A stretch of DNA of 48,538 bases from a virus (IMGVR_UViG_2740892445_000002), one strand, 5' to 3'. Positions 1 to 48,538 are shown, numbered from the stretch's first letter. Notes: a model not told the origin generated them from the letters alone. A program made the numbers and translations.

Positions 1-675
1 TTATTCCTGTGCCCAGCCAACCTTATATGCCAGTATCTCATCCGCACTGGTCAGCTTTTCCAGCTCTTTCTTCATCATGCGCTGGCGAACGTGGATTTCC
101 ATCCCTTTCTGAAACATCGCCTTTTCTGCCGCAGCACTGAGCGCGATCAAAGCCTCCGCTGTCATCGGCACGTCATTATTTTCTGCATCTGTCCAGAAAA
201 ATCCCTCCGGCAGTATTCCCGCTTTTGCTGCTGCCACCGACGGCTCAAGACGAACCTGAGTCACCTTGCCGTAGTCCCACTTCCGTCCATTGTACTCAAA
301 CACATACTCCGCATTTTCCATGGCACTTCGCCAGGCATTTATTTCTGCCCCCTTCTGTTCACGTGCTCTGTCAGCCGTCAGCAGGTCGGTGATTTTTTCC
401 CCGTCAAATCCCCAGCGTCCGCTCAGGTCAATTTTCAGGCTTTCCGGTGCGTCCGGCACTTCAGCCACACTCTGGTTCACCGGCCACAACAACTTAATGT
501 CCTTACCATATCCCGTAATCACACCACGGCTGTCATACACCACCTTCAGCGTGTCTTCCGCAAACCTGGAATGGCATTCATACCAGTCCTGACCATCCTC
601 AGATTTCAGGTATATCGCACCCGCCACATCCGGCTCTGCCGGTGTGTAATACGAAAAATTTCTGACATGCATCAT
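1..675 (-). CDS. tfa: tail fibre assembly protein (Tfa-like chaperone)
   Basis: 224 aa ORF starting MMHVRNFSYYTPAEP..., N-terminal region resembles the TfaE/Tfa family; sits immediately downstream of the side tail fibre gene. Confidence 0.75.
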   Translation of the reverse strand: MMHVRNFSYYTPAEPDVAGAIYLKSEDGQDWYECHSRFAEDTLKVVYDSRGVITGYGKDIKLLWPVNQSVAEVPDAPESLKIDLSGRWGFDGEKITDLLTADRAREQKGAEINAWRSAMENAEYVFEYNGRKWDYGKVTQVRLEPSVAAAKAGILPEGFFWTDAENNDVPMTAEALIALSAAAEKAMFQKGMEIHVRQRMMKKELEKLTSADEILAYKVGWAQE

Positions 676-896
676 TTTCCCGTGCCCTCTTCCGATACCG
701 GCACCCAGACCGGCATTTTTTCCGTACCGACTCCCCGCTTCATGCCCGCCGGTGCAGCATCCGCTGCAAAAACTTTATACACGGCATAGTCCACCTCTAT
801 ACCATCCACAGGCCAGTTTCCGGTAGTCTCGTAAACGGCACGCAGGGAGGCCGGATAAAACATATTCGCGGACGGTGAAAAAATATAACGCTCCAT
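672..896 (-). CDS. small hypothetical protein between tail fibre and tfa
   Basis: 74 aa ORF, start overlaps stop of next gene (ATGA coupling); no recognisable family. Confidence 0.4.
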   Translation of the reverse strand: MERYIFSPSANMFYPASLRAVYETTGNWPVDGIEVDYAVYKVFAADAAPAGMKRGVGTEKMPVWVPVSEEGTGK

Positions 897-905
897 AATC
901 CCTCC

Positions 906-2312
906 TCAGTATCCGGTCGCTTCCCAGAAAAACTTACCGGAGGTTCCTCTGACAGTCCTCAGTGTCACCGACTGCAATGACGGTGAGGACAGAGTGTATC
1001 CAGGAATTTTCCCGGGCTCCCCCACCGGAGAAACCTGAACATTCAGCACTGCTGAAGGAAAAACCACCGGAAAACGGATGGAGTGCAGTGATAACGCCTG
1101 ACCATCGGATTCACTTATCACAAGCGTACCCCATTGTCGCATCCGTCCGGTAGCCTCATCACGTTCCCAGCCATTGACAGCCAGACTCGCCGTCGTGGGT
1201 TTATTCCTGGTACCGTAATCCACCCGCCAGTGGTATTTCCGGGTATCGCCATAAACCGTACAGGTACAGACCGTGCCATTAATAAACCCCGTTGCACCGT
1301 ATTCACCAATGGTGACCCGTACAATGGCGGCGTCATATGTTCCCATCACTTCAATGGTACAGCCGCCCAGATTGAGTTTCCCCGGTCCGACATCAGTGAT
1401 GGCCTTATTCATCGCCGCTGGCAGTGATGCCTTCATTATCCAGCAGGTATGGTCAAATGCCCCCTGCTCTTTCAGCCAGGCAACAAACTCTTCTGTCGTC
1501 CACTCACCTGCTCCGGTTGAAATGTCACGCCCGTATGCTCTGGGCACACCAAGCTCACGGATGAAAGCTTCCCTGTCTGTAATATCTTCAAGGCTGCCTG
1601 ATTTTCCCTGAGGCCCGGCAGGCCCCTGTGGTCCCGGATCTCCCTTTGGCCCTGGAGGGCCACCCGGATCTCCTTTCTCTCCCTTTTCACCCCGTTCGCC
1701 TCTGGGCCCTGTGTCCCCCCTGTCACCTTTTGGTCCCACAGGACCGGCTTTACCCTCAGGTCCTGTGGCTCCGGTATCCCCTTTGGGGCCCGGAACACCC
1801 TGTGCCCCTGTTGCACCACGCTCACCCTGTGGCCCGGTTGCACCTGTCTCACCTTTCGGTCCCTGTACCCCCTGCGGTCCCGGGTCACCTTTATCACCCT
1901 TCGGCCCCCTGGCATTCTCTGCCCGTTTTTTGGCCTCCTCTGCACTGGCTGCGGAGGCTTCAGCACGCTTCAGTATTTCCGCAGCCACCGCTTCCAGCTC
2001 AGCGAGGGCTTTCGGATAATATGGCGCATCCTCAAAGTCCATCAGGAATTTATTCAGTGTTCCCGGTGCAGAGTCCGCCTTCACCAGAATGTCACCGACG
2101 TATGACGGCATACGCCCTTCTGTGTTCAGGGTCACACGGTACAGCCCCGGTTCAACATCCATACTGTAGCTGCCTGTCTCCCCCGGCTGCCCGTATGCCA
2201 CCGTGGTGACAATCACCGTTTCTGTGGTGCGTCGCGCTTTCAGTTCTATTGTGCATCCCGGTACCGGCTTCCCCGCGCCGTCCTTCAGCACACCCGATAT
2301 TCTGACTGCCAT
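906..2312 (-). CDS. stf: side tail fibre protein with collagen-like Gly-X-Y repeats
   Basis: N-terminus [17 protein letters not shown]... matches lambda Stf N-terminus; central run of about 35 G-X-Y triplets ([13 protein letters not shown]...). Confidence 0.85.
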
Positions 2313-2359: not shown

Positions 2360-2688
2360 TAAAAATCGTGGTTTACAGGATTAAAAAGGTGCTATCCGGA
2401 ACCGGAATTCACACAGTGAACTGTGGGTGATCCAGATAATGAGCACTACCGTGATACAAATCACGGTGGTTTTTAACGGTTTTTGCGACACAGAACTTGC
2501 TCCTTATTACGGAGAGGCGCTAACCTGCCACTTGCTTAAGGTAGACGGTTCAGGGCCTCGGGTTAACATTGAAGTTGACTCGGGGCCTTTTCACATCAGG
2601 CCTTCAGGTGTTCCCTCCGGCCATCAGCCAAAGGCACCCGCGCATACTGTACGGTTTTATATCCTTCCGGCAATTCCGGTCATCATGT

Positions 2689-5600
2689 TCACGAAATACT
2701 GATACCCGCCGTGGATTTTTTCATGACCACAACCAGTAAATCACTGATGTATGTTGTCGGCGTCCAGTGGTTCACCCCGTTCGACCACACATTAAACGTC
2801 AGGGTCACATGACCCCGTCCTGCCGGCATATCAATGACGGACGAAAACACCCGGGTGACATCCGTTGCCGGCTCATGAAAAATTACCCTTCCGTTCATCT
2901 GCACCTGTAACTGACACGTGGAATACCATGTTGAAGTGTGATCTTTGCTGGACTGGTGCTCATGTCTCGCCCCCCGGAACAGTACCGGTGGAATGATGAT
3001 CTGCCTGTCGAAGCCCTGGTCATCATAAACGGTGACCGTTATAGTGCCACTGGCATAACTGTTATTCCGTGGGAAAGCTTTCCCCACTGTTTTGACCAGG
3101 TCACCTTCAATCTGGTTTGCAGACAGTTTTCCCAGAATCCGGCAGTTCTGGTTAATGGTCACATTATTGAGCGTGCCAGAGTTCGCATTAATATTTCCGC
3201 TGATATCCGCATTACGGGCCGTCAGCCTGCCTTCCGGCGTCAGGGAGAACACAGGGGGATTGCCGGACGAGGTGATGCTCACCGCAAACAACCGCTTCAG
3301 GAATACGTCGTTCATGAACAACTGATTCCCCTGCGCCACAAACAGCGGCGTGGTGTTGCCGTTCTCCGGGTTAATCATCGCGATACGGTCAGCCTGCAGC
3401 AGAATATTGCTCAGGGTCTGGCCATCAACATCCTCAATCCCCGCACCAATACCAGCAACATACGGAATACCGTTTTTCGTTTTCTGCACCTTCAGCATGT
3501 ACAGTGCGCTCAGGCTGTCATCCGTCTCCTTCTGCACACGCTGTATCTGCTGTATGGTGACACTCTGGTCTTCCAGGATTTTATTGACCGTCTGTGTGAT
3601 TTCATTGCGGGTTTCTGTGATGGTGGTCTTCATCTCCGCCATCTCATCATCAAGCTGACTGTTATCAATCAGCTCCCACATCCCCTGTGCCAGATGTGTC
3701 TTCCCGATTTCTCCTTTGAAAAAGTCCAGATAACCTTCCGCATCATTGCTCGCCCGTCCGGTTGCTTCAACAAAAACGGATTTACCCACCAGGTTGACGC
3801 TGCGCACATAAAACCAGAAATCTGTCCCTGGCTTAATGTGCGAGCCGGAGACGCTCCACTGGCTGCCGGTCCCCAGATAACGGGCGGACGTTTCCACCTG
3901 TGCCGTGTTCGTGATGCGTTTTTCTGAGAACCAGAATTCAAACTGTACCGTCGGATCATACAACGCAAGACGCGGCACTGCTGTTATCTGGAAATAGCCG
4001 GGGGTCAGTTCAATGGTGGCAGGTGCTGCCGGTGCGTTAATCCGGAACGTGGTGGTGGCAGGCTCCCCCAGCTGGCCATAGCTGTTTATCGCCCTGACCG
4101 TCAGGGTGTATTCCCCCAGCGGCAGGCCACTGAAACGGTGCTCCGTGTCGGCGGTGATGGCGCTGGTCACCAGACGGCTGTTTTCACCGGTTCCGCTGGT
4201 CAGGCGCAGACTGAAGCGCACGCCCTTCACCACCCTCGGCGTGTCCCATTTCGCCGCCGCCAGATACTGACCGTCAGACGCGCTTACCTCCACCGTGAGA
4301 TGCTGTACTGCCGGAGGTGTGACACTGTTCAGCGAACCGGACAACGGCTCAAAGGTGGCACCATTATCCACGATGGCCTCCTTCTCCGGCACATGCTGCA
4401 CCGCCGTGATGGCGAAGGTACCGTCCGCATTTTCGCGGATCGCCACACACCGAAACAGACGGCGGCGCAGTCCCGGCAATGCCAGCCCCCAGATACTGTG
4501 TTCCACCACCCCGTCAGGCAGTGTACTGATCTGTATCCTGTCAGGTGATGGCTGCCCGGTAACATCCACACTCACCGGTTTACCGCTGCCGTTTATCAGA
4601 TTCACCGTGGATGTGCCCTTTTCCGGGAGGGTGACTTCACGGTCAAGCGTCAGGGTCCGGCTGGCGTTGTCGACGGACAGGATCCGCCCGCCGATCACGG
4701 TACCGGCATACGCATTATCACTGATTTCAATGATATCGCCCGGCGTGTGACGCAGTCCCTCCGCCCCCACACTGAAATCCACTGTCTGTGTTTCCAGCAG
4801 TTCGGTCTTTATCACCCACAGGCCTGCCCGGTGAGCCTGACCACGGCTGGTACAGCCGAACGCATCCATCTTCAGAAGATTGCGTCCGTAGCGCAGTATG
4901 GCATCCGGATCCTCCACCAGTTCAGTCGATGTCTGCCAGCCATTCTGCGGATCGGTGTAATTCACCTCAACTGCCGTGTGTCTGTCCTTGAGGGCACTGA
5001 AGCTGTAATGAAAACTTACCCCATCCTCCCCCGTCACCACATTACCGGCGGTATAAGTCCAGACAACATCCGATGGTCTGTCCTGAACAAACGTCAGCGT
5101 CTGTCCGTTCCATACCGGCATACAGCGCATTGCAGAGCAGAAATCCCCCAGCACGTCCCACGCCTTACGCTGTTGTGACAGGTACGCATTAAAGGTCATA
5201 CGGGGTTCTGTACCACCAAAGCCATCCGGAACCGGCTGGTCACAGTACTGTCCGAGGGCATAGAGCGCCCACTTGTCCACATCCGCGGCCCCGAGGCGCT
5301 TTCCCATACCATAACGTGGATGCGTCAGCATATCCCACAGACACCAGGCCGGGTTGTTGCTGTATGCCGGTTTCAGAGTCCCGTCCCAGATACCGCTGTA
5401 TGTACGTTTTTCCGGGTCATAGTTTGACGGCACCTGGATGATGCGCCCGCGGATATGGTAGTTCACCGCCATCTGCTGCCCACCGAACTGCTCCGCATCC
5501 ACCTGCAGCCCCACTATGGCTGTGTTCGGGTAGCTCTGTTTCACATCGATGATTTCGGTGTATGACGACCAGAGCGTTCTGTTCTGCAGCTGGTCCGTGG

Positions 5601-6165
5601 TACTGTCCGCCGTCTCCCTGACTATCCGGATATTAAAGGGACGCTCAGGGAGGTTACCGATTATCACCGACGTCAGGTACTGCGAGGTGGTCTTACCGTT
5701 AATGGTGATATCCTTCTCTGTCACCCAGTGCCCGCTACGCTCAAGCTGAATCAGCAACCGGACAGAAGAGGGATTACGGTCACCCTTTGAGGTCGTCTCC
5801 ACCAGTGACTGAACCCCGAAGGTGACCCGCAGACGGTCAATGTTCGCTGACGTGATGGTGCGCGTCACTGGCTTCGCCTTCGTCACCTCCACGCCCAGTG
5901 CGGTTTCCGCACCAGAAGACTCAAAGCCTTCCGGCGGCGTCTGCTCCTGCTCCCCTGCACGCCAGACGGCTGTCACGCCATGTATCACGGGATTACCGTC
6001 CATATCCGTCAGCGGGGTTTTGTTCACCAGAATACTCTGCAGTCCCTTCACCGGACCTTCAACCGGCCCTTCACCAATGGCATCAATCACGCTCATCATC
6101 TGCGTGGACTTCAGGTTATCCTTCGCCTCACGCGGTGTGTGCCCCTTGCCGCCCCCCTTACCCAT
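2689..6165 (-). CDS. J: host specificity protein J (central tail fibre)
   Basis: 1158 aa; N-terminus [22 protein letters not shown]... and extended colinear similarity to lambda gpJ as I recall it. Confidence 0.95.
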
Positions 6166-6206
6166 TGCGTCACCCTTTAGTGTCTGATATCAGTATCTGT
6201 TTATGT

Positions 6207-6238
6207 ACAAAAACAACAGGCACCCCAGAGGGTGCCTG
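6207..6238 (-). terminator. intrinsic terminator-like hairpin in I-J intergenic insert
   Basis: Minus-strand CAGGCACCC-UCUG-GGGUGCCUG followed by UUGUUUUUGU. Confidence 0.5.
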
Positions 6239-6369
6239 TCTGCTGAGTGAATAAAATTCCTGAATTTCTTCACACTTCCGGCAATTACCTGTAGCCACCA
6301 TAATTACGCTGCGTTACTGTTTTCCTGCCTGAAAAATAACTCCATAACGTTAATCTTCATCGTTTATTT

Positions 6370-6403
6370 CCCGCAGCTCCGCTAACTCTGCGGGATTTTT
6401 TTA
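6370..6403 (+). terminator. plus-strand terminator-like hairpin in I-J intergenic insert
   Basis: CCCGCAG-ctccgctaact-CTGCGGG followed by ATTTTTTT on plus strand. Confidence 0.4.
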
Positions 6404-6406
6404 TTT

Positions 6407-7045
6407 TCATCCCCGCCCGATAACCACCACCTTACCGTCTCCGCCTTCATCACGGGTGCTGATGTCCTGGGATATCCGTCGCGACCCCACAAGCATCTCA
6501 CCATAAGGCACCGGCATCGGGTTACCCTGGGCAATCATGTTGTCCAGTGAGGAGAAATACGTGTTCCGTTTACCATTATCTGTTGTCGTGGCAGACGGTG
6601 TTTTCGCCCTGGGGGTGAGCATCTGCGTGATACCCCCCACCATCATGGCCACCCCAAGATTACCGATGACAGCACCAATACCGGTCCAGCTGAATACATA
6701 TCCCACAACAGCCAGAACAGCACCGGCCACCACCTGAAGAACACCGCCGTTTTTTGCCCCCTCCGTCCGGGGCACCAGATGGATAACATTCCCGTCATTC
6801 AACGGCTCACATACTCTGGAATGAAGCTCCTGTTCAGATACATCCCTGCCCGCAATGCGTAACTGATACCATCCCTCATACAGTTTCTGCCGGAATCCCG
6901 GCACCTGCAGCGACAGGGCACGGATGGCCTCCGCAGCCGTGTTCACATACAGGCTGATGCGGCGACCAAATCGTTGTAAATCCCCGTGAAGGCAGATACG
7001 GACCAGTGGCGGTGACGCCAGACAGAATGCGTTCGTCGTTGCCAT
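6407..7045 (-). CDS. I: tail assembly protein I
   Basis: 212 aa, ...ICLHGDLQRFGRRI... and C-terminal GK(R)NTYFSSLDNMIAQGN motif as in lambda gpI. Confidence 0.9.
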   Translation of the reverse strand: MATTNAFCLASPPLVRICLHGDLQRFGRRISLYVNTAAEAIRALSLQVPGFRQKLYEGWYQLRIAGRDVSEQELHSRVCEPLNDGNVIHLVPRTEGAKNGGVLQVVAGAVLAVVGYVFSWTGIGAVIGNLGVAMMVGGITQMLTPRAKTPSATTTDNGKRNTYFSSLDNMIAQGNPMPVPYGEMLVGSRRISQDISTRDEGGDGKVVVIGRG

Positions 7046-7695
7046 TTTTCAGAATACCTCTCCCGTTTACTCAGTTGTTCAGGTATATGGTGAAGCAGTT
7101 CACCATTGCCACAGTAAATGGCAGCATGATTGGGTACCGATGAACCAAAACAGCACAGCAGAATGTCTCCCGCCTGTGCACCGGACAGGGATACCCGGTA
7201 AAAGCCGTTTTCCGCCAGATTGTCCAGGTACAGGTTCTGACCGTTGCGCCACCAGTCATCCTCACGCGCAAAATCCGGCAGCGTTATCCCCGCCAGATGG
7301 TATGCATCCCGGAACAGGGTGTAACAGTCCGTCACACCGTGTTCAAAACGCCGTCCGGTGAGGTGCGGAACGCAGCGGAAATGATGAATTTCGCCCCGGC
7401 AGACCAGCCACCAGGGAATTGCACTTTTTACCTGCAGCCGTCGGTCCGCCTCGCTCAGCCAGGGCAGACCGCCGGGATGACTGTGGACCAGCGCCACAAT
7501 CTCCCCCTGCATATCCGCCCGCAACCAGTCTTCCGGCGCAATACGAAAATACGCCTCCGGCTCTGCAGAAATATTCACGCACGGCTGATACTGCTCCCCC
7601 TCCGGCGTTCTCACCACGAAGCCGCACGACTCCGCTGGCGCACACCGCCGTGCATGCGCCAGAATGGCTGATTCAGTCTGTTCCATGATAATCAC
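6943..7695 (-). CDS. K: tail assembly protein K (MPN/JAB plus NlpC/P60-like)
   Basis: N-terminus ...QTESAILAHARRCAPAESCGF..., HSHPGG motif; overlaps I start by about 100 nt. Confidence 0.85.
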   Translation of the reverse strand: MIIMEQTESAILAHARRCAPAESCGFVVRTPEGEQYQPCVNISAEPEAYFRIAPEDWLRADMQGEIVALVHSHPGGLPWLSEADRRLQVKSAIPWWLVCRGEIHHFRCVPHLTGRRFEHGVTDCYTLFRDAYHLAGITLPDFAREDDWWRNGQNLYLDNLAENGFYRVSLSGAQAGDILLCCFGSSVPNHAAIYCGNGELLHHIPEQLSKRERYSEKWQRRTHSVWRHRHWSVSAFTGIYNDLVAASACM

Positions 7696-8390
7696 TGTGA
7701 AAGTTTATTAATGGAAAGGAAAAAACCGCCGTTTGCCACATTCCCGCGCATTTCACAACCGCGCAGGCACTTGCTGCATTTGTCTTTCCTGATATCCGTG
7801 GTGGGTTTGTCGAACTCGTCAGCCACTGCCGGGCCGTTATACCCACATTCCTCTCCACGGTAATCCCACGGACAGGTATTGGCCAGCATGATACGACCGG
7901 GAAACAGCGCCCCGTCCGTCTCTGCCGGTGTCGCCAGGATAAAGGTCGCCTTTTCGCAGGTCAGCGCTGACAACTGCTCCACCACCCAGCGATCTGTCAA
8001 CTCCTGCTCAGGGTCTGCCTCCGGGTTTCCCGCAACAAAATTCACGGCATCGAGAAAACGGGCGTACACCCGGCGGCGAACCACCGTGCCCCCGACCAGA
8101 CTCTGCAAATCCTCCGCCATGCCGGTGACCAGTCCGAACAGATTCGAGACAATCAGCGACGGTCGCGCACTGCTGCCCTTGCCGTTCATCTCAAAGCCGC
8201 TGCCCTCTATCGGGTATGCCTGATACTGACGCCCCTGCCAGGTGACAGGCTCGCCCTTTTCATTGATTTCACCGCAGAAAAAATAGCGTTCGCCTCCCTG
8301 CGCCTTCAGGTCGATTTCCCACAGCACCACGCGGGCGGACTGCGCTGATTTTACTGCCTCGTTCAGACTCTCCTCATGAATATCCTGCAT
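7692..8390 (-). CDS. L: minor tail protein L
   Basis: Start placed at internal Met (MQDIHEESLNEA...) matching lambda gpL N-terminus; the longer ORF (to 8459) would read through a terminator hairpin. Confidence 0.9.
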   Translation of the reverse strand: MQDIHEESLNEAVKSAQSARVVLWEIDLKAQGGERYFFCGEINEKGEPVTWQGRQYQAYPIEGSGFEMNGKGSSARPSLIVSNLFGLVTGMAEDLQSLVGGTVVRRRVYARFLDAVNFVAGNPEADPEQELTDRWVVEQLSALTCEKATFILATPAETDGALFPGRIMLANTCPWDYRGEECGYNGPAVADEFDKPTTDIRKDKCSKCLRGCEMRGNVANGGFFLSINKLSQ

Positions 8391-8404
8391 ATGTATCCGC
8401 CCAT

Positions 8405-8428
8405 AAAAAAGGGGCGCAGACGCGCCCC
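8405..8428 (-). terminator. intrinsic terminator downstream of porin moron
   Basis: Minus-strand GGGGCGCG-UCU-GCGCCCC followed by UUUUUU. Confidence 0.7.
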
Positions 8429-8595
8429 GAACAATACGTTCAGTTTTAAATAAAACCAATAAAGGTAATAACAGAAAATTAAATCAGCATATGCATGGCA
8501 ATTGCTGATGCAGTGACCAATGAAAACTATGTTTTCATTGATACAGACCGCCTGTAAGGGCAGACGGTCTGTATTTATTAACTTATCAGCAATAA

Positions 8596-35667: not shown

Positions 35668-35668
35668 G

Positions 35669-35959: not shown

Positions 35960-36107
35960 AGCAGGTGCCAGTTGTTCAGGCTGGCGTGCGAATTGTAAAC
36001 CAGAATGTCAAGAAAAAACAAAACCCGCAGAAGCGGGTTAAGTGCGGGTGCGTTGAGGATGCCTGACACATCAGAGGTGGCGAGGGATTTCTCCCTCGCC
36101 GGGTCTC

Positions 36108-37809: not shown

Positions 37810-37810
37810 C

Positions 37811-38518: not shown

Positions 38519-38611
38519 TTCACTACCGCCATTTCGAACGGCCTCCTGATGTTCTGAGGGTGCAGAAATCCCTCCGGTTAAGGATTAAATTTTTAACAGT
38601 GCTAAATTTAA

Positions 38612-38968: not shown

Positions 38969-39025
38969 GCTCCTCTCCTTTGATGCGAATGCCAGCGGCA
39001 ATTGAAGCCTGATAGCTAATTTCAC

Positions 39026-39491: not shown

Positions 39492-40577
39492 TTACCCCCT
39501 GAAGCCTGGCGGAATTTCGGTATCCGGTTCAGAAACATGATTCACACAACGCTGGTTGTTCGTGCCGCTTACCGGGAGCAACCAGGGGTTTTCAAAATTC
39601 CGATCCGGTCCAAAAAACGTCGTCGCTCGCTGAACAAATTCCGTTCCCGTTTTCCCGGTAGTCGCCAGGTATCTTGCGTAACGCCTCACGCCATCCAGCA
39701 TGGCCTCTGGTGGCACCCCCTCGCGTAATCTGGCCTTCCAGGCACTGAAAGCGGATTTCTTCGGGTTTGCCCCGGCACGCAACGGGTATTCCCGCCAGAC
39801 CTGTTCGAACACATCCGGATAATCCACTCGTCCCACAGGCTGCCCGGTGTTTTCCGGGACTACCTGATCGGCTTCCCGCTGAATGGCGGAATCGGCTTCA
39901 GGCTGCTGCAGTTGGTGTGATTGTTCCGGCCTTGCGGTCATCGCCTGCTGCACAGCGCCCGAATCGGCTTCCGGTGTCGTGCCTGCTGGCTGACCAAGAT
40001 TGACGTTCTGAACATCCCCTGCCTGGTTCGTGGCGATTTTTTCGCCATGAAGCATAGTATTTTTATCCTGCTCCTGTTCTTTCTCCTGTTCCTGTTCTTG
40101 GCTTAGAAGCCCCTTTAAAGCCTCTTCGAAGCCCCTTGCTGAATTCCGGCGATTATTCCGCCTCACATCCAGATGGAAATCCGTTTTATATCTGTCGTAA
40201 AAGGCTGACAGAAAGGCGTTTTCAGGTAATGATGCATACTCATTCCTGACACCTGCACAACGGTTATCTCCAGGCTTCAACGTTTCCCCAACCTGCCAGG
40301 CTGCCATTTCATGGACCCAGACCATCTCGGCATCATGGTCATAGCTACAAAAACCAGCTTCAACAGCCCTTTTAAGCCCCTTCGAAGCCCCTTCCGGACC
40401 AAGCCCGGTTTCATGAGCAAGGTACAAAACTGGCAGGTAATACAAACCCAACATATTTGCGTGAGGGGATGTCATCAGGTAAAAAGCAACAACTTGCGCT
40501 TCTGCACCCGCCTTTCTAAGTTCTCTCCCCGTTTCTCCCAGCCAGAATCGCGGGGAAACTTTTGCATAATCACGCAT
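39492..40577 (-). CDS. putative replication protein (YdaU/DUF1376-like)
   Basis: Start set at MRDYAKVSPRFW... behind GACGAGGTG; N-terminal region resembles Rac YdaU-type proteins. Confidence 0.55.
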   Translation of the reverse strand: MRDYAKVSPRFWLGETGRELRKAGAEAQVVAFYLMTSPHANMLGLYYLPVLYLAHETGLGPEGASKGLKRAVEAGFCSYDHDAEMVWVHEMAAWQVGETLKPGDNRCAGVRNEYASLPENAFLSAFYDRYKTDFHLDVRRNNRRNSARGFEEALKGLLSQEQEQEKEQEQDKNTMLHGEKIATNQAGDVQNVNLGQPAGTTPEADSGAVQQAMTARPEQSHQLQQPEADSAIQREADQVVPENTGQPVGRVDYPDVFEQVWREYPLRAGANPKKSAFSAWKARLREGVPPEAMLDGVRRYARYLATTGKTGTEFVQRATTFFGPDRNFENPWLLPVSGTNNQRCVNHVSEPDTEIPPGFRG

Positions 40578-40603
40578 GTTCACCTCGTCTGGAGCCAAAC
40601 CTT

Positions 40604-41286: not shown

Positions 41287-41712
41287 TTAGTGCATCACCA
41301 CGGCATTTCCTGCAGGGCCACCACGGTTCATCTGATTGAAACCGGCAATCGCCACTGCGACAAAATCATCAGCGTCTCTCACCAGTCGTTCCCGCGTCTC
41401 CACCAGCTCCCGAAAATAGGCTGAACTGTGGCTGCGCATTCGGGCCACCAGCAAAGGTGGCATTGCCTTTTCGATCGCTGGTAACAACGCCTGAATTTTT
41501 TCAACAGCATCAGGGGTGTCTTTCTCTACCCAGCGGAAAATTTTCTGGGTATTACGAGCTAGGGCTTCCGGATGGCTGTCGCCGTACAGTTCCGGAAATG
41601 TCATTCCCAGTTCAAAATACGCTTTGGTAATCTTCGCAGTTGGTACTTTCTCGCCATCCGGATGCGCCCAGGCATTCATCGCCATGCGGATGTGCTCATG
41701 GCTGATTTTCAT
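41287..41712 (-). CDS. YdaT-like protein (CII-position regulator of Rac-type switch)
   Basis: 141 aa starting MKISHEHI..., immediately downstream of the Cro-like gene. Confidence 0.55.
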   Translation of the reverse strand: MKISHEHIRMAMNAWAHPDGEKVPTAKITKAYFELGMTFPELYGDSHPEALARNTQKIFRWVEKDTPDAVEKIQALLPAIEKAMPPLLVARMRSHSSAYFRELVETRERLVRDADDFVAVAIAGFNQMNRGGPAGNAVVMH

Positions 41713-42019
41713 GAATCATTTGCCTCTTGATATTTCGGGTATGCTCGTTTTCGTCATTTGGTTGCTTCATCAACATATTCAGCGAATAGCATGACGAGCG
41801 TCGTAAGTATGACCAGTCAACATCAGGACGAAGTTCTTCGCACAGAACACCACCTCTTGTTGCACGTTCAATTGCTGGACATCGCTCAGCAGGCAACTGA
41901 CGTACACCTTTGATCCATTGATTTACGCTTGGAGGTGATACACCTAAAAGCCTAGCCATTGCAGATTGCCCACCGACAACAGCACACGCTCGTTTGAATG
42001 AATAGTTCTCTTTTTTCAT
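41696..42019 (-). CDS. Cro-like HTH regulator (YdaS/DicC-like)
   Basis: 107 aa, HTH ...QSAMARLLGVSPPSVNQWIKG...; divergent from repressor gene across operator repeats. Confidence 0.7.
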   Translation of the reverse strand: MKKENYSFKRACAVVGGQSAMARLLGVSPPSVNQWIKGVRQLPAERCPAIERATRGGVLCEELRPDVDWSYLRRSSCYSLNMLMKQPNDENEHTRNIKRQMIHENQP

Positions 42020-42040
42020 CGAATGAACTCCAAAAAAACA

Positions 42041-42125
42041 CGAAACAATATTAGGCGACGCCTAATACAAATGTCAATAGGCGTCGCCTAATACAAATGA
42101 AGTAGGGATTGCCTAATGCAATGAG
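42041..42125. promoter_or_regulatory. operator region (OR-like) with repeated palindrome TTAGGCG-N-CGCCTAA
   Basis: Two full copies (about 42051-42065 and 42077-42091) each followed by TACAAATG, plus a degenerate third. Confidence 0.7.
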
Positions 42126-42144
42126 CATAGGAGAGTATTAAGCA

Positions 42145-42621
42145 ATGCTTAGTGGTAAAGACTTAGGCCGAGCGATAGAGCAGGCCATTAACAAAAAAAT
42201 TGCATCAGGATCCGTCAAATCAAAGGCGGAGGTAGCGCGTCACTTCAAAGTCCAACCACCATCAATCTATGATTGGATTAAGAAAGGTTCGATAAGTAAA
42301 GATAAACTTCCAGAGCTATGGCGTTTCTTTTCTGATGTGGTTGGCCCAGAGCATTGGGGGCTTAACGAATACCCCATACCAACCTCCCTCATTTCAGATA
42401 CAAAAAGTGAACTTTTAGACATAAACAGCCTTTATCAAGCCGCCTCTGATGAAAAAAGAGCCATTGTGGCTTTTCTCTTATCAGAAAATGCCACGGAACC
42501 TAGTTGGGTTGATCATGACGTTCGCGCCTACATTTCCACAATGGAGATGAAGGTAGGTAAGTATTTGAAAGATCAAGAATCAGAACGGAAAAGCCAGAAC
42601 ATCACCAAAACGGGAACTTAA
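42145..42621 (+). CDS. CI-like prophage repressor (RacR/DicA-like HTH, no peptidase domain evident)
   Basis: 158 aa with N-terminal HTH-like region; divergent arrangement with Cro-like gene. Confidence 0.7.
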   Translation: MLSGKDLGRAIEQAINKKIASGSVKSKAEVARHFKVQPPSIYDWIKKGSISKDKLPELWRFFSDVVGPEHWGLNEYPIPTSLISDTKSELLDINSLYQAASDEKRAIVAFLLSENATEPSWVDHDVRAYISTMEMKVGKYLKDQESERKSQNITKTGT

Positions 42622-42760: not shown

Positions 42761-42940
42761 TCTCCCATACCAACCCACCCCGCCCACAGAACACCGGGCA
42801 ATACTTCGAGTTACCCGGCAGTGATTAGGGGTTAAGTAGCCAGCCCGAGGCGTATGAACATGACGGCGGGAACACTTTGTATAACAGCGCAGCAGGTTTT
42901 TAGTTCCGCTACCCCGGCGTTAAGGGGAAATGAGGTCAAC

Positions 42941-43093
42941 ATGGATACGCTCAATCTTAGCAACAACGAATCTCTGGTATGCGGTGTGTTCCCTAACCAG
43001 GACGGCACCTTCACCGCGATGACGTATACCAAAAGTAAAACGTTTAAAACCGCAGCTGGCGCGCATCGCTGGTTAGCAAGAAACACTGACTGA
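42941..43093 (+). CDS. small protein, YdfA-like
   Basis: About 50 aa from internal Met (MDTLNLSNNESLVCGVFPNQDGTF...), first gene after pL-like promoter. Confidence 0.4.
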   Translation: MDTLNLSNNESLVCGVFPNQDGTFTAMTYTKSKTFKTAAGAHRWLARNTD

Positions 43094-43464
43094 TGAGGTT
43101 GACGATGGAATTTAAATATTTACCGCCTTCAATCCAGGAGATTGCAGCACACACACTTCGTCATCGTCTGAACGAACTTGAATTGGAATCGGTAACAAAA
43201 AAAGACACTGATAATATGGCTCGTAATGTGCGCGATGCGTTTACTGGGCTGTTTTCAGATACAGCTTTAAATATCCATGGCACAGAGGATACAGCAAAAC
43301 AATTTGCAGAAAAAGAAGTGGAAGATCTCAGTTCAAAGAGCCAGAAACAGCCAAACAACCATGAAATTAACGAACTGCTTCTGGCAACAGGCTTCATAAA
43401 TATTAACGAATATGAACGCCGTAAAAAAATGTTATCTGATCAATCCATCAAGATATCTTTTTAG
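43093..43464 (+). CDS. hypothetical protein
   Basis: 123 aa ORF in pL-like operon. Confidence 0.45.
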   Translation: MRLTMEFKYLPPSIQEIAAHTLRHRLNELELESVTKKDTDNMARNVRDAFTGLFSDTALNIHGTEDTAKQFAEKEVEDLSSKSQKQPNNHEINELLLATGFININEYERRKKMLSDQSIKISF

Positions 43465-43626
43465 CATCAGCGTTTCTACGTTATTAAAACCATCAGATTT
43501 TAACATAGCTTCGATTCGCTGATTTAAATTGCCAACTAACTGTTGATACTGAGTAGATGGAAGCATGTGTACCAGCTCCTTGAGAACACAATAACATGCA
43601 CCAAGTTTTAACTCCTGCTCTGACAT
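43432..43626 (-). CDS. small hypothetical protein (about 64 aa) antisense-oriented within the leftward operon
   Basis: Internal Met MSEQELKLGACYCVLKEL... behind GGAGGA Shine-Dalgarno. Confidence 0.4.
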   Translation of the reverse strand: MSEQELKLGACYCVLKELVHMLPSTQYQQLVGNLNQRIEAMLKSDGFNNVETLMLKRYLDGLIR

Positions 43627-43962
43627 TTTATCCTCCATTGAGGTTACTGGTTGAGAATGGAGACCTCTCGTGACAGCGTGTGGTCGTGCGCCGGACACGG
43701 ATAAGAATCCGACACTGACAGTTTACTGAAAGGATATATCCCTGAAAAGTCAGGGCATAACACGAAAGCGCACGGCGAGATTCCTTTGCATATAAGGCTT
43801 GTCGTTAAATTTCTTCAACCGCGCGTTTCCGGTTGTGGCAATCCGCGAAATAGCGCGGCGGTAAGTATGGCGGGGCTATTCCTTCCCCCGTTGAGGACAC
43901 CGGGTTGTCAGGTTGACCATACGCTTAAGTGACACCCCAGCCACAACAACCTCTGTTATCAC

Positions 43963-44002
43963 TTTTCTGGTGATTCGGCGGAAATGGATATCCGCTCTTT
44001 TT
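43963..44002 (+). ncRNA. dicF: DicF-like small RNA
   Basis: UUUCUGGUGA 5' seed then GGCGGA-AAUGGAUA-UCCGC hairpin and U-run; downstream TTTTTAAAGTGAATTTTGTGATG..GGTGAATGCGGC matches the dicF-dicB spacer as I recall it. Confidence 0.65.
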
Positions 44003-44179
44003 AAAGTGAATTTTGTGATGCGGTGAATGCGGCCATGCGCACGCAGAACAGTTAAAACAAGCGGTCTTTTACTCGCGTAACAGACATCAACTAACAATCC
44101 GGCGTTAATTGTTAACTGGTTAACGTCACCTGGAGGCACCAGGCACGGCATCACAAAATTCATTGTTGAGGACGCGATA

Positions 44180-44368
44180 ATGGAAACGTTATTACCAAAC
44201 GTTAATACGTCTGAAGGTTGTTTTGATATTGGTGTTCTGCTCAGTAATAAAGCGTTTACTGAGGATGCCATTAATATGCGGAAATATGAGCCTTATCTGC
44301 TCAATGATAATTCCATTCTTTCCCGAATTGCCCTTATTAAACTTGGTATTTTCGGAGAACGTCAATGA
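44180..44368 (+). CDS. dicB: cell division inhibitor DicB
   Basis: 62 aa, METLLPNVNTSEGCFDIGVLLSNKAFTEDAIN... like Qin DicB. Confidence 0.85.
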   Translation: METLLPNVNTSEGCFDIGVLLSNKAFTEDAINMRKYEPYLLNDNSILSRIALIKLGIFGERQ

Positions 44369-44553
44369 CTTCAGCATTTGCACTGGTGATGACGGTTTTT
44401 CTTATAACGGGTGAATCACAGAATGTGATTACCGGAATTTATGCCAGTAAAGAATCCTGCCTCCAGGCAAGAGACGAGCAAAAAATTTCTGGTGAATGCC
44501 TCCCGGTAAAAAAAGTATCGCTGTACCTGAATAACGAAACACCGGCTGGATAA
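44365..44553 (+). CDS. YdfD-like small membrane protein
   Basis: 62 aa, N-terminal hydrophobic segment; ATGA-coupled to dicB as ydfD is in Qin. Confidence 0.55.
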   Translation: MTSAFALVMTVFLITGESQNVITGIYASKESCLQARDEQKISGECLPVKKVSLYLNNETPAG

Positions 44554-44648
44554 CCCTCCAGCCATATTAACGCCATACCAACGGATTAAAAATGCCAGCA
44601 ATGGCAGGGATTCGTTCACCCTGAAATCTGTAATGAGGTTAAAACACA

Positions 44649-47120
44649 ATGAGTAAAATCTTTATTTGCGCGGCTATTCCTGATGAACAGGCCATAAAAG
44701 AAGATAGCGCTGTTGCGGTGGCCACTGCCATTGAAGCCGGTGATGAGCGTCGCGCACGCGCAAAATTTCACTGGCAATTTCTGGAGCAATTCCCGGCAGC
44801 TCAGGACTGCGCTTATAAATTTATTGTCTGTGAGGATAAACCCGGCATACCCCGCCCTGCCCTCGATTCCTGGGATACCGAATATATGCAGGAAAACCGC
44901 TGGGATGAGGCGTCTGCTTCCTTTGTCCCGGTCGAGACTGAATCCGATCCGATGAACGTCACCTTTGACAAGCTGGCCCCTGAAGTACAGAACGCCGTCA
45001 TGGTTAAGTTCGACACATGTGAAAACATCACTGTTGATATGGTGATTAGCGCACAGGAATTGTTGCAGGAAGACATGGCAACATTCGACGGCCATATCGT
45101 TGAAGCGTTGATGAAAATGCCAGAAGTTAACGCCATGTATCCGGAGCTTAAGCTGCATGCCATCGGGTGGGTTAAGCATAAATGCAAGCCTGCTGCTAAA
45201 TGGCCCGAAATTCAGGCAGAGATGCGCATCTGGAAAAAACGTCGCGAAGGTGAACGCAAGGAAACCGGGAAATACACATCTGTCGTTGATATCGCCCGTT
45301 CCAGAGTAAACCAACAGAACACTGAAAACTCTGCTGAAAAAACCGGGGCTGTCACTGTTGCCGTTCGCCGAGAATACAAACAGACATGGAAAACACTCGA
45401 CAATGAGCTGGCCTGCGCCCTCTGGCCCGGTGATGTGAATGCGGGAAATATTGACGGTACCATCCATCGCTGGGCGACAAATGAGGTTATCGACAAGGAT
45501 CGCGAAGACTGGAAGCGTATCTCAGCATCAATGCGCAAACAGCCCGAAGCACTTGGCTATGACCGTCAGACTATTTTTGGCCTTGTCCGTGAACGTCCGA
45601 TCGACATTCACAAAGATCCCGTTGCACTGAACAAATATATCAGCGAATACCTGACAACAAAGGGCGTGTTTGAGCATGAAGAAACAGACCAGAGCTCTGC
45701 TGATGCTCTCCAGCCGTCAGCAGCACAAACTGCTCCAGTGGAGACGGCAGAATCCGATACTCAAAAAAATGAAATCCTGGTGGAAGCTGAACCATCTGTA
45801 GAGCGTGAAGGACCATTTTATTTCGTCTTTACCGATAAGGGCGAGGAAAAATACGGCAGGGCAAACAAACTTTCTGGTCTGGACAAGGCGCTGGCTGCCG
45901 GCGCTACCGAAATCTCAAAAGAGGAATATTTTGCCCGAAAAAATGGCACATATACGGGCTTACCGCAAAATGTAGATACCGCTGAAGATTCCGTACAACC
46001 AGAGCCGGTAAAAGTTACCGCTGACGAAGTAAACAAAATTATGCAGGCAGCCAATATCAGCCAGCCTGACGCCGATAAATTGCTTGCTGCATCACGTGGT
46101 GAATTTGTTGAAGGGATTAGCGACCCTAATGATCCGAAATGGGTGAAAGGGATCCAGAGTCGCAACGCTGAGGACCAGAATCAGCCCGGCGTGAAACAAA
46201 ATGAGCCAGAAGCGGAACAAAACAGCCCGGATACGCAACAAAACGGGTCAGAAGAGCAACAACCAGAACCAGCAGTGCAACAGGAAGTGGAGAAAGTTTG
46301 CACCGCATGCGGTCAGACCGGTGGCGGCAACTGTCCTGACTGTGGTGCGGTGATGGGCGACGCAACCTACCAGGAAACATTCGATGGAGAGAGCCTGGTT
46401 GAAGTTCAGGAAAATGCTCCGGAGGAAATGGAAGGCACTGAAGATCCGCACAAGGAGAACACTGACAGCGATCAGTATCACGCCAGCGATAATAAAACTG
46501 GCGAGACAGCAAATCCCTTAATTAAGGTGAACGGTCATCGTGAAATCACATCCACCAGCAGGTTGTGGCACCATCTGATGATTGACCTTGAAACAATGGG
46601 AAAAAATCCTGATGCGCCAATAAACGCTATAGCCGGTAAGTTTTTTGATCCGGCAACCGGAGAGATGGGGCCAGAATTCAGCAAAACTATCGATCTGGAA
46701 ACCGCAGGCGGGGTCATCGAACGGGACACCATTAAGTGGTGGCTGAAACAGTCACGCGAAGCACAATCCGCCATTCTGACCGATGAAATCCCGTTGGATG
46801 ATGCACTGCTGCAATTCCGGGAATTTATCGACGAAAACTCCGGTGAATTTTTTGTTCAGGTCTGGGGTAACGGTGCAACTTTCGACAACGTGATTTTACG
46901 CCGTTCATATGAACGGCAGGGGATCCCCTGCCCGTGGCGTTACACCAATGATCGCGATGTAAGAACGATGGTTGCTCTGGGACTGGTGATGGATTTCGAC
47001 GCAAGAACGACTATTCCATTCGAAGGTGAACACCATAACGCCCTGCACGATACGCGTTACCAGGCAAAATACGTTTCAGCCATCTGGCAAAAACTGATCC
47101 CGAGTCAGGCTGATTTTTAA
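44649..47120 (+). CDS. large protein with C-terminal DEDDh 3'-5' exonuclease domain
   Basis: 823 aa; C-terminal motifs IDLETMG (Exo I), GNGATFDNVIL (Exo II), HNALHDTRYQAKY (Exo III); central CxxC...CxxC. Confidence 0.75.
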   Translation: MSKIFICAAIPDEQAIKEDSAVAVATAIEAGDERRARAKFHWQFLEQFPAAQDCAYKFIVCEDKPGIPRPALDSWDTEYMQENRWDEASASFVPVETESDPMNVTFDKLAPEVQNAVMVKFDTCENITVDMVISAQELLQEDMATFDGHIVEALMKMPEVNAMYPELKLHAIGWVKHKCKPAAKWPEIQAEMRIWKKRREGERKETGKYTSVVDIARSRVNQQNTENSAEKTGAVTVAVRREYKQTWKTLDNELACALWPGDVNAGNIDGTIHRWATNEVIDKDREDWKRISASMRKQPEALGYDRQTIFGLVRERPIDIHKDPVALNKYISEYLTTKGVFEHEETDQSSADALQPSAAQTAPVETAESDTQKNEILVEAEPSVEREGPFYFVFTDKGEEKYGRANKLSGLDKALAAGATEISKEEYFARKNGTYTGLPQNVDTAEDSVQPEPVKVTADEVNKIMQAANISQPDADKLLAASRGEFVEGISDPNDPKWVKGIQSRNAEDQNQPGVKQNEPEAEQNSPDTQQNGSEEQQPEPAVQQEVEKVCTACGQTGGGNCPDCGAVMGDATYQETFDGESLVEVQENAPEEMEGTEDPHKENTDSDQYHASDNKTGETANPLIKVNGHREITSTSRLWHHLMIDLETMGKNPDAPINAIAGKFFDPATGEMGPEFSKTIDLETAGGVIERDTIKWWLKQSREAQSAILTDEIPLDDALLQFREFIDENSGEFFVQVWGNGATFDNVILRRSYERQGIPCPWRYTNDRDVRTMVALGLVMDFDARTTIPFEGEHHNALHDTRYQAKYVSAIWQKLIPSQADF

Positions 47121-47172
47121 TGTTCAACCGTCGCCAGTTGTAGTTGCTATTCTGCAACTGGCGCATTCCGGA

Positions 47173-47451
47173 GTGATGGCCATGAGCGAACAGTACCTGA
47201 TAACGCTCGACGAGTGGAAACCTAAACGGTTCAGTCTCCCAATAACAAACACTACCCTGGTGAAATACGGAAAAATGGGATACATCGTTCCAAGGCCACA
47301 AAAAATCCGTGGGCGTTGGCTGATAGATCGCCGAGCAGTATTTGTGGGTCCTGGTGAAACAGGAATTGCGCCGGAAATTCATACTGACGATGATGACGCA
47401 CTGAAGGAGATTTTAACTCATGTCACCGAGGCCACGAAAAAACAGCACTGA
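47173..47451 (+). CDS. xis: excisionase-like protein
   Basis: 92 aa basic protein immediately upstream of and overlapping integrase. Confidence 0.55.
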   Translation: MMAMSEQYLITLDEWKPKRFSLPITNTTLVKYGKMGYIVPRPQKIRGRWLIDRRAVFVGPGETGIAPEIHTDDDDALKEILTHVTEATKKQH

Positions 47452-48538
47452 CATAGCATGTCTTTACGAAAAGTTTGATCGCAGAACTGGCAAGGTTTAC
47501 TACCAGTATAAAAATCCAGTGACTGGAAAATTTCACGGACTCGGAACAGACAAAGGCAAGGCAGAAAAAATCGCTTCCACGGCTAATCAACGAATAGCTG
47601 CAGCAGAAGCGGAATATTTCATGCGCAAAATTGATGAAAGTCCATCAGCAACAAAACGTCGGGGTATCAGATTAAAAGCATGGGTTGATCGATATCTGAA
47701 AATACAGGACTCACGACTGAAAAATGGAGATATTGCAGCTACAACCCACAAAGAAAAGGCGCGAATGGCTGCATACCTGGTTTCCCGCCTGGGAAATCAC
47801 CCATTGATAGACCTGGAAGTAAGAGACTTTGCATTAATACTGGATGAATGGCTGGATAAAGACATGGTCAGCACAGCGAGAGTAAATCGCGGATTATGGG
47901 TTGATATTTATAAAGAAGCACAACATGCAGGGGAAGTTCCTCCTGGATGGAATCCTCCGGAGGCTACCCGTAAACCGATCCCTAAAGTAACCAGAGCCAG
48001 GCTCGCCCTAGAAGACTGGCAAAAAATTTACAACGCAACGCCGGAAAAACACTTTATCCGTAACGCAATGCTTCTTGCGATTGTCACTGGTCAGCGCCGT
48101 GATGACATTTGCCACATGCGTTTTTCAGATGTGTGGAACGAACACTTGCATATCACCCAGGGAAAAACCGGAATGCGTCTGGCGTTACCGCTTACACTAC
48201 GCTGTGATGCCATTGGGATAACGTTAAAAGACGTTATTGATGGATGCCGAGACAGAATATTAAGTCCATATCTAATCCATAGTCGGCACCAGAAACAACC
48301 AAAGCCGATGAGTAAAGACAACCTGAGCGACTACTTTGCCAAAGCGCGGGATCTGGCTGGAATAATTCCACCAGCAGGAAAAACACCGCCCACATTTCAT
48401 GAACAACGCTCTCTATCTGAACGGCTGTACCGTGCACAGGGTATCGATACAAAAACCTTACTAGGACATAAAGTCCAGGCAACCACCGATCGCTATAACG
48501 ATACCCGAGGTCAGGAATGGGTTAAGTTGGTTATTTGA
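47420..48538 (+). CDS. int: tyrosine site-specific integrase
   Basis: 372 aa; C-terminal ...HEQRSLSERLY...LLGHK....TDRY... with catalytic-type R, H-x-x-R and Y positions. Confidence 0.9.
   Translation: MSPRPRKNSTDIACLYEKFDRRTGKVYYQYKNPVTGKFHGLGTDKGKAEKIASTANQRIAAAEAEYFMRKIDESPSATKRRGIRLKAWVDRYLKIQDSRLKNGDIAATTHKEKARMAAYLVSRLGNHPLIDLEVRDFALILDEWLDKDMVSTARVNRGLWVDIYKEAQHAGEVPPGWNPPEATRKPIPKVTRARLALEDWQKIYNATPEKHFIRNAMLLAIVTGQRRDDICHMRFSDVWNEHLHITQGKTGMRLALPLTLRCDAIGITLKDVIDGCRDRILSPYLIHSRHQKQPKPMSKDNLSDYFAKARDLAGIIPPAGKTPPTFHEQRSLSERLYRAQGIDTKTLLGHKVQATTDRYNDTRGQEWVKLVI

Follow-up and report, generated by a model that had tools for sequence, protein, structure and literature searches.

The 48,538-nucleotide (nt) viral sequence IMGVR_UViG_2740892445_000002, hereafter the window (the whole stretch of DNA analysed), represents with high confidence 98% of a single mosaic lambdoid prophage, a lambda-like siphovirus of about 49.4 kb (~49,372 bp) inserted between potB and potC of Escherichia coli. 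This assignment draws on directly observed gene content, synteny, sequence identities, attachment (att) junctions and single-element status. An earlier sequence-only reading had proposed one element combining lambda virion genes, a Rac/Qin-type early region and a late region of the Shiga toxin (Stx) phage type without stx, and comparison with lambda, with the Rac and Qin maps and with a Stx2a phage found a match for each of the three module types.

The prophage is inserted at the 3' end of potB

Both ends of the window led to the same source. The Int protein (47420-48538) has an exact copy on the single public contig read, JUKA01000001.1 (GCA_000804365.1), and the tail-fibre protein (906-2312), on the opposite side of the element, leads to the same contig. 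Window positions 1-12312 and 37420-48538 are identical to JUKA01000001.1, the comparison covering these 12,312 and 11,119 bases; because the matches are exact at both ends, the window is a piece cut from this contig. Its limits are the stop of a minus-strand open reading frame (ORF; 1-675) at the left and the stop codon of int at the right. The sequence-only reading had located the left prophage junction outside the window and had supposed that the right att site was hidden since the window stops at the int stop codon. Both suppositions proved correct: in the source contig, the distance from the window is 678 bp leftward to attL and 156 bp rightward to attR. The 678-bp left stretch holds a YkgJ-like ORF with a CxxCxxCC motif.

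The genomic context and the att sites, which that reading had named as the way to check it, were then read from the contig. The prophage is preceded by potB, potA, pepT, roxA, phoQP and purB on its left and followed by potC, potD, ymfA/ycfZ-like genes, cobB, nagK, lolEDC and mfd on its right. In E. coli K-12, potB and potC overlap by 4 bp, and the empty attB (CTGAATAAGAAGG / TGGAACTCGAATGA) lies within the final 26 nt of potB, just ahead of potC. Alignment with attR and the K-12 site gave attL as ...CGTCTGCTGAACAAGAAGG / CAACCGAAATAGATGATTAG... (in shorter form ...CTGAACAAGAAGG / CAACCGAAATAG), and attR reads ...CCGCCTTATGAACAAAAAGG / TGGAACTCGAATGATCGG... (also written ...ATGAACAAAAAGG / TGGAACTCGAATGATCGG). 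The core common to attL and attR is about 12 bp long (TGAACAARAAGG), its copies differing by one mismatch. In alignment with K-12, where potB and potC are neighbours, attL and attR reconstitute the host attB; the predicted attP is …CCTTATGAACAAAAAGG / CAACCGAAATAGATG… and the predicted restored attB …CTGAAYAAGAAGG / TGGAACTCGAATGA…. At the left junction the PotB C-terminus changes from …NKKVELE to …NKKATEIDD, the new end being supplied by the phage, and at the right junction the potC ATG is kept, as is the host sequence that starts 12 nt before it.

This position is shared with known prophages. potC is a documented insertion site of both Stx and non-Stx prophages (PMC8065619; PMC10925052), and the potB/potC prophages of E. 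coli M18, M1/M3 and CI5 (NZ_CP010219.1, NZ_CP010180.1, NZ_CP010183.1, NZ_CP011018.1) occupy the same insertion site. Six other lysogens have the same potB flank, and M18 and M1 have the same potC flank. The integrase gene is co-oriented with potC, and potCD is split from potAB by 49 kb (flank L008, 11120-11290; L023, reverse complement), a separation that might affect spermidine uptake in lysogens. A simple scan of the 156-bp phage arm found no promoter on the potC strand.

One element rather than several

The module types could in principle belong to two or more adjacent elements, tandem or compound prophages with their own att sites, an alternative that the sequence-only reading had itself named. 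Compound prophages do exist at potC, in some O157:H7 strains (PMC10925052), and a sharp change in similarity to the M18 prophage at position 34406 could at first sight resemble a boundary. This breakpoint, however, falls within rusA, in the middle of an operon. Integrase/excisionase pair, terminase/cos, immunity region and lysis cassette each occur once in the element; the att core has no internal copy on either strand of the window; potB and potC directly bracket the 49.4 kb; and the genes follow the order that is canonical for a single lambdoid genome. The single copy of each of these functions, the lack of an internal att core and the direct potB/potC flanks therefore indicate one element and rule out separate adjacent ones, which we regard as extremely improbable.

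Close relatives differ by module

In the prophages of M18, M1/M3 and CI5 the virion and late regions are 99.7-99.95% identical to those of the window, including a porin gene, a four-copy array of STnc100 small RNA (sRNA) genes and a tRNA gene with an 8-nt anticodon loop, and the int genes of this group show about 94.5% DNA identity. Between the M18 prophage and window 1-34406 there are 17 differences (99.95% identity); beyond the breakpoint at 34406 only patches of 84-94% identity are found, and M18 carries another repressor and replication set (a helix-turn-helix protein, a DnaC-like ATPase and DUF1627). M1 has RacR, YdaS and YdaT in common with the window, with only 80% of the right half covered. 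The breakpoint and the differences of M1 and M18 in the early region argue that close relatives differ by replacement of whole modules, as the lambdoid mosaic model predicts. The element is, in this respect, an ordinary product of lambdoid modular exchange, of a well-known kind.

A lambda-type virion module

We compared the virion half with lambda (NC_001416) by tblastn, together with precomputed Pfam hits. From Nu1 to J all genes stand in lambda order at 45-89% amino acid identity (29% for FI) and with about full coverage, the Nu1 match being of half length, which upholds the assignment of lambda virion genes in the sequence-only reading. The cos site is 94% identical to that of lambda, and its cosN 12-mer (AGGTCGCCGCCC, 23633-23644) is an exact match. 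A slippery heptamer, GGGAAAG, lies at 13346, the position equivalent to the G-T frameshift of lambda, and a simulated -1 shift there yields a 290-amino acid G-T fusion. Along with these packaging, head and tail genes in lambda order, the window has divergent repressor and cro-like genes, Q upstream of the lysis genes, and int and xis next to att, the organization of a lambdoid prophage.

An early region of Rac and Qin type

The earlier assignment of a Rac/Qin-type early region was likewise supported, by RacR (93% identical to the K-12 protein), YdaS (85%) and a series of Qin homologues. The Qin-like genes comprise dicB-ydfD-ydfE, ydfA, ydfU, hokD and essQ-rrrQ-rzpQ, at 47-90% amino acid identity and in the same order. 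In the 125-bp gap between ydaS and racR lie three TAGGCGnCGCCTAA palindromes (42051-42117) at 24-28 bp spacing, candidate RacR operators in a layout like that of lambda OR1-3. The early-left operon includes a YdfA-like DUF1391 protein (84% identical to Qin YdfA) and a 123-amino acid ORF, as well as an 823-amino acid exonuclease that is the full-length form of the Qin ydfE pseudogene, 90% identical over the part surviving in Qin; xis and int close the operon.

We considered whether this exonuclease could be RecE. Its Rv2179c-like domain and its YdfE_N and YdfE_C domains, with 38% identity over 43% to the RecE region, ruled this out, and no RecT homologue was found in the window. A permissive Rfam search of 42000-44700 returned no DicF match at E <= 1. 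In the early-left region the same search gave only an STnc100-like match of 22 bits and an IS009-like match of 20 bits, both far below gathering. The former (44009-44157, plus strand, E = 0.054) lies just upstream of dicB, the position of DicF in Qin, and is probably due to chance.

A Stx2-phage-type late region without stx

In a search of 50,697 phage records, window 25000-34400 matched Stx2-converting phages best. The late region was compared with the Stx2a phage Stx2_EH1910 (LC567834.1). Window 31586-34935 is 89.7% identical in DNA to this phage, with the same gene order, and window 25531-29642 is 68-92% identical. In Stx2_EH1910 the order is ydfU, rusA, quuQ, a 198-nt ORF, a DNA methylase, tRNA(CAT), tRNA-Arg, tRNA-Arg, stx2A, stx2B, iraM, yjhS, DUF1378, DUF826, holin and endolysin, and the window retains the synteny of Q, methylase, tRNAs, slot, nanS-p, holin and endolysin. 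A tblastn search of the window with Stx2A and Stx2B gave no significant match (best E = 0.4), so neither a toxin gene nor a hidden stx remnant was detected. The late region is thus, as the sequence-only reading had it, of the Stx-phage type without stx.

By amino acid identity the Q protein is of the QuuQ-like type (92% to quuQ of Stx2_EH1910, 39% to Qin YdfT, 31% to lambda Q), and the leader downstream of it is where PR'/tR' would be expected. Window 29600-33500 is rich in terminator-like hairpins, with 14 against an expected 4.4 +/- 2.0. The NanS-p-type protein has the DUF1737 (E = 5e-14), SASA (3e-13) and DUF6645 (4e-66) domains and occupies the syntenic position of yjhS of Stx2_EH1910, to which it is 68% identical; NanS-p homologues are reported in a review to have Neu5,9Ac2 esterase activity (PMC8065619).

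The slot between the tRNA genes and nanS-p carries an STnc100 array

In the Stx2a phage the slot between the tRNAs and nanS-p measures 2.3 kb and contains an argO-like tRNA, stx2AB, one STnc100 and iraM; in the window it measures 1.9 kb. The sequence-only reading had described a non-coding repeat array here, flanked by nanS-p and tRNA genes, in place of a toxin. The flanking genes are as described, but the repeats are four STnc100-family sRNA genes, all of full model length and, in the order of Table 1, scoring 77, 101.5, 99.6 and 132.9 bits against a gathering score of 47. They lie on the strand of late transcription. Common to all are a conserved upstream element and two invariant blocks, ATGGTGAATCCCCCTGTGCGGAGGGGC and CACCGGGAGGCACCCGGCACC, and the cores of ~60 nt differ; only the last two copies (C and D) have the intrinsic terminator GCCCCTC…GAGGGGCTTTTTT.

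Nor does "in place of a toxin" describe the array well. In both Stx2_EH1910 and an O157:H7 Stx2a prophage a single STnc100 comes after stx2B, one occurs in a non-Stx prophage (L029), and a single STnc100 next to stx2B has been reported for Stx2 phages (PMC12370729). Because Stx2 phages also carry one STnc100 by stx2B, the array is an expansion of the resident STnc100 of the slot rather than a replacement of the toxin. Sampled relatives outside the lineage of the window have one copy or none. The full array occurs in 17 of 5426 complete E. coli genomes, and single-unit matches in 1161. E. coli A39 (NZ_CP028737.1; L020, 700-1560) has three STnc100 copies and a frameshifted nanS-p; array copy number therefore varies within the lineage.

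Deletion of stx2AB from an ancestral Stx2-converting phage would also leave a slot without toxin. DNA identity to Stx2_EH1910 of about 90% on either side of the slot, and 82% identity between the last STnc100 copy and the copy after stx2B, are what such a history would predict. The slot, however, is not simply a shorter version of its counterpart: it contains 625 bp of unrelated sequence and three extra STnc100 copies, it lacks the argO-like tRNA, and the argN-like tRNA beside it has a different anticodon arm. The window has no residual stx sequence, and a toxin-free slot is found in other non-Stx prophages as well (L029). We consider toxin loss, as against a lineage that never carried the toxin, improbable. 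The 625-bp spacer (30961-31585) has no ORF of at least 60 amino acids, no Rfam match at E <= 1 and no homology to the Stx2_EH1910 slot, and may encode further unclassified sRNAs.

The tRNA genes

Next to the slot lie two tRNA genes; the argO-like third tRNA of Stx phages is absent from the window. The 3' acceptor strand of the Ile2-type tRNA(CAT) is missing 2 nt (AAGG--CAACCA versus AAGGGCCACCA in Stx2a and other prophages), which leaves 4 acceptor base pairs. The anticodon loop of the second tRNA is 8 nt long, C-U-UUUU-A-U, and ARAGORN gives the four-base anticodon tttt. This tRNA is homologous to the argN-like tRNA of Stx2 phages and to a tRNA-Lys(UUU) of other prophages that is 77 nt long and has a loop of normal size. 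Its fold is a clean cloverleaf, its CCA end is encoded and, relative to tRNA-Lys(UUU), an acceptor-stem pair has undergone a compensatory change from C:G to T:A. The 8-nt form was found in 6 of 5426 complete E. coli genomes, and a pattern of its exact stems with a free loop matched nothing in IMG/VR or in GTDB species representatives. Natural tRNAs with an enlarged anticodon loop are rare (PMC5009743).

Such a loop has the architecture of quadruplet-reading tRNAs (+1 frameshift suppressors), so the gene could be a quadruplet or +1 decoder, or a decaying gene. If charged and used, the tRNA would be a natural phage-borne reader of AAAA, or could perturb the reading frame at A-runs in late expression. 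A scan for ORF pairs joined at AAAA in the +1 sense found 5 sites, all ordinary overlaps (Nu1/A, xis/int, K/I and others), a count not above that of control quadruplets; it therefore gives no support for a need of the prophage for +1 decoding. One could further imagine that the four STnc100 genes, with their shared scaffold and differing cores, form a diversified sRNA cassette at the toxin position, accompanied by a quadruplet-decoding tRNA. On the present comparisons this combined reading is a speculation to which we give little credence.

Functional state of the prophage

Because the essential-looking genes are all intact, we judge the prophage to be, on balance, probably functional. It could instead be a single mosaic prophage that is defective, a domesticated Rac/Qin-like remnant kept for its cargo (sRNAs, NanS-p, porin, Hok/Sok and DicB), which is possible but doubtful. 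Its early region is of a type known mainly from cryptic prophages, its repressor shows no self-cleavage domain, one tRNA is damaged, the M18 annotation treats the YkgJ-like ORF at the left end as a pseudogene, and isolated phages that match 25000-34400 cover at most 39% of its length (50,697 records). Decay of this kind is at odds, however, with virion genes of about full length relative to lambda (apart from the half-length Nu1 match), an exact cosN, an intact G-T frameshift signal and Rz/Rz1 pair, intact int and xis, and a full-length replication initiator. Virion and late copies that are 99.7-99.95% identical in strains of mouse and human source also speak against a remnant; they fit recent mobility, and common descent is possible as well.

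Several observations raise doubts about function, and none contradicts the reading of the element as a single mosaic prophage. At 12 bp, with attL and attR differing at one base, the identical att core is short. RacR gives only a sub-threshold HTH_17 match, with no Pfam family over the curated cutoff and no S24 peptidase match, which makes classical RecA-mediated induction doubtful. The window yielded no N-like antiterminator, and the Ile2-type tRNA, given its acceptor stem, is probably non-functional.

Homologous and illegitimate exchange among lambdoid phages has brought together in this genome cos, head and tail genes of lambda type, an early region that is Qin-like with immunity of the Rac type, and a Stx2-phage-type late and lysis module; a lambda-family tyrosine integrase inserted the element into the 3' end of potB, directly ahead of potC. 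By analogy with lambda and with Stx phages, we infer the following for regulation, inducibility and sRNA function. In the lysogen, RacR would hold the divergent early promoters off. Derepression would lead to replication and to expression of the rightward operon, from the replication initiator through the Nin-like genes to RusA and Q, and Q would in turn enable RNA polymerase to read from PR' through the stack of terminators. The resulting late transcript would comprise the methylase, tRNAs, STnc100 genes, nanS-p, holin, lysozyme, spanins, cos and virion genes, with packaging at cos. Since the STnc100 genes have a conserved element upstream and two of them carry terminators of their own, the repressed prophage could express them too, to act as base-pairing regulators.

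Other genes of the element

A porin moron lies within the tail operon, which may be an unusual place for one; its product shares 58% identity with K-12 OmpN and no more than 68.5% with porins in 42 phage records. In the GC profile its region has a GC content of ~39%, and AT-rich 9-nt repeats lie upstream (9939-9993). In the gap between J and stf, the position of lom in lambda, is a Hok/Gef-like ORF with a fold-back-prone leader upstream. It has no Rfam sok match and, if genuine, would be a second hok-like locus beside hokD/sok. Between cos and the lysis genes, a cytochrome b561-like gene is transcribed counter to the late operon, and within the lysis cassette an ORF for an Rz1-like lipoprotein with a lipobox is embedded in the Rz gene. 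These and the remaining features are collected in Table 1.

Table 1. Positions of the features in the window, with strand and evidence (aa, amino acid identity or length; PGAP, Prokaryotic Genome Annotation Pipeline).
Feature	Position	Strand	Evidence or remark
Side tail fibre cluster	1..2312	-	PGAP names in the 99.95%-identical M18 prophage; Pfam
DUF4376 protein	1-675	-	
Small tail-fibre-assembly-like ORF	672-896	-	
Tail fibre with phage_tail_N and collagen repeats	906-2312	-	52% aa to N-terminus of lambda orf-401/Stf
Hok/Gef-like ORF, 36 aa, GTG start	2381..2491	-	weak PF01848 match
Tail tip genes J, I, K, L	2689..8459	-	lambda order; Pfam Lambda_tail_I, Phage_tail_L, NLPC_P60, GpJ; aa to lambda: J 65%, I 59%, K 85%, L 75%
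OmpC/OmpN-like porin (moron), 387 aa	8596..9759	-	between tail genes M and L; Pfam Porin_1/Porin_4
Virion genes M, H, T, G, V, U, Z, FII, FI, E, D, C, B, W, A, Nu1	9993..23449	-	tblastn against lambda; aa to lambda: M 78%, H 78%, T 70%, G 69%, V 77%, U 80%, Z 89%, FII 70%, FI 29%, E 62%, D 57%, C 53%, B 61%, W 53%, A 66%, Nu1 45% (half length)
cos site	23600..23894	-	94.2% identical to lambda cos over 295 bp
Opposite-strand morons	23844..24946	+	PGAP names in M18
YnfO/YlcI-like protein	23844-24038	+	95% aa to Qin YnfO
61-aa ORF	within 23844..24946	+	
Cytochrome b561-like membrane protein, 180 aa	24404-24946	+	phrog_31729
Lysis cassette	25021..26960	-	Pfam; identities to Qin and Stx2_EH1910
Rz-like DUF2514 spanin	25021-25527	-	53% aa to Qin RzpQ
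Lysozyme	25524-26057	-	Phage_lysozyme; 89% aa to Qin RrrQ, 88% to Stx2_EH1910
Opposite-strand ORF	26175-26489	+	between holin and lysozyme
Class II holin	26745-26960	-	Phage_holin_2_1; 80% aa to Qin EssQ, 100% to Stx2_EH1910
DUF826 small late gene	27038-27343	-	Pfam; M18 PGAP names mapped to window
DUF1378 small late gene	27369-27545	-	M18 PGAP names mapped to window
NanS-p-type sialate O-acetylesterase, 678 aa	27708..29744	-	DUF1737 + SASA + DUF6645
Four tandem STnc100-family sRNA genes	29847..30960	-	Rfam RF02076
STnc100 copies	30960-30782, 30727-30530, 30465-30260, 30067-29847	-	
625-bp spacer	30961..31585	-	terminator-like hairpins 31343-31326, 31141-31120
Two tRNA genes	31586..31741	-	ARAGORN; Rfam tRNA 47.6 and 47.3 bits
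argN-related tRNA, 78 nt	31663-31586	-	8-nt anticodon loop CUUUUUAU
tRNA(CAT), Ile2-type	31741-31667	-	damaged acceptor stem
N6/N4 DNA methyltransferase	31781..32839	-	Pfam N6_N4_Mtase; 91% aa to Stx2_EH1910 methylase
Leader 3' of Q	within 32840..34234	-	198-nt ORF 32989-33186; terminator-like hairpins 33330-33315, 33002-32985
Q antiterminator	33413-34234	-	Pfam Antiterm, two stretches
RusA	34231-34605	-	Pfam RusA
DUF968/YdfU	34618-35667	-	82% aa to Qin YdfU
Small ORF	within 34231..36432 block	-	
hokD/sok type I toxin-antitoxin	hok ORF 36108-36320, sok RNA 36258-36432	-	HOK_GEF; 88% aa to Qin HokD; Rfam sok 114.8 bits
Nin-like block of small genes (DUF551, DUF7167, DUF977, unnamed PHROG families)	36728..39451	-	Pfam, PHROGs
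Replication initiator / DnaD-like helicase loader	39492..40598	-	phrog_1701, E = 2e-144, full length
Immunity region	41287..42621	mixed	Pfam YdaS_toxin, P22_Cro, YdaT_toxin
YdaT	41287-41712	-	31% aa to K-12 YdaT
YdaS/Cro-like	41696-42019	-	85% aa to K-12 YdaS
RacR-type repressor	42145-42621	+	93% aa to K-12 RacR
Early-left operon	42854..47120	+	
DicB	44180-44368	+	Pfam DicB; 65% aa to Qin DicB
YdfD/DUF1482	44365-44553	+	Pfam DUF1482; 47% aa to Qin YdfD
YdfE-type exonuclease, 823 aa	44649-47120	+	YdfE_N, YdfE_C, Rv2179c-like 3'-5' exonuclease domain
Excisionase	47173-47451	+	phrog_629
Tyrosine integrase	47420-48538	+	Arm-DNA-bind_1 + Phage_integrase; 35% aa to lambda Int

Comparison with known systems

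Although the element matters little beyond annotation, it provides a fully delimited non-toxigenic relative of Stx2 phages at potB/potC, with its att sites, insertion point, module borders and cargo, that could help to tell Stx from non-Stx prophages in assemblies and could serve studies of the STnc100/PasD sRNAs.

With lambda it shares cos, the order from Nu1 to J, the G-T frameshift, Int and Xis by att, and the overall lambdoid map. In contrast, immunity, replication, recombination, Q (31%), lysis and Int (35%) are distant or unrelated; a porin lies between M and L, and lom is absent, with the hok-like ORF in its place.

With Qin it shares the order of ynfO, rzpQ, rrrQ, essQ, Q, ydfU, hokD, the cro-like and repressor genes, ydfA, dicB, ydfD, ydfE and int, mostly at 47-95% amino acid identity. 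Qin itself is truncated and without virion genes, its ydfE and intQ are pseudogenes, and it has DicA/DicC immunity and encodes DicF, whereas the window has RacR/YdaS/YdaT immunity and no detected DicF. From cos to int the window is colinear with the Qin map, and it is in effect an intact Qin-like phage with Rac immunity. The immunity genes racR, ydaS and ydaT have the same divergent arrangement as in Rac. The window differs from Rac in lacking RecE/RecT, KilR, SieB and YdaU/YdaV, in its integrase, and in its insertion site (potB, as opposed to ttcA).

The late region resembles that of Stx2_EH1910, of which stx2AB, iraM and the argO-like tRNA have no counterpart in the window, and four STnc100 genes stand against one. 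The comparison shows the stx slot to be a site for cargo in general, in which the resident STnc100 can multiply into an array. The STnc100/PasD family has been surveyed and adjoins an esterase gene in lambdoid prophages, where multiple PasA/PasD copies are reported to be widely separated and not to have arisen in tandem (bioRxiv 10.64898/2026.05.13.724894). The window has the same esterase-gene neighbour but four tandem copies within 1.1 kb and, because the surveyed copies are dispersed, the array is an uncommon arrangement of a known sRNA.

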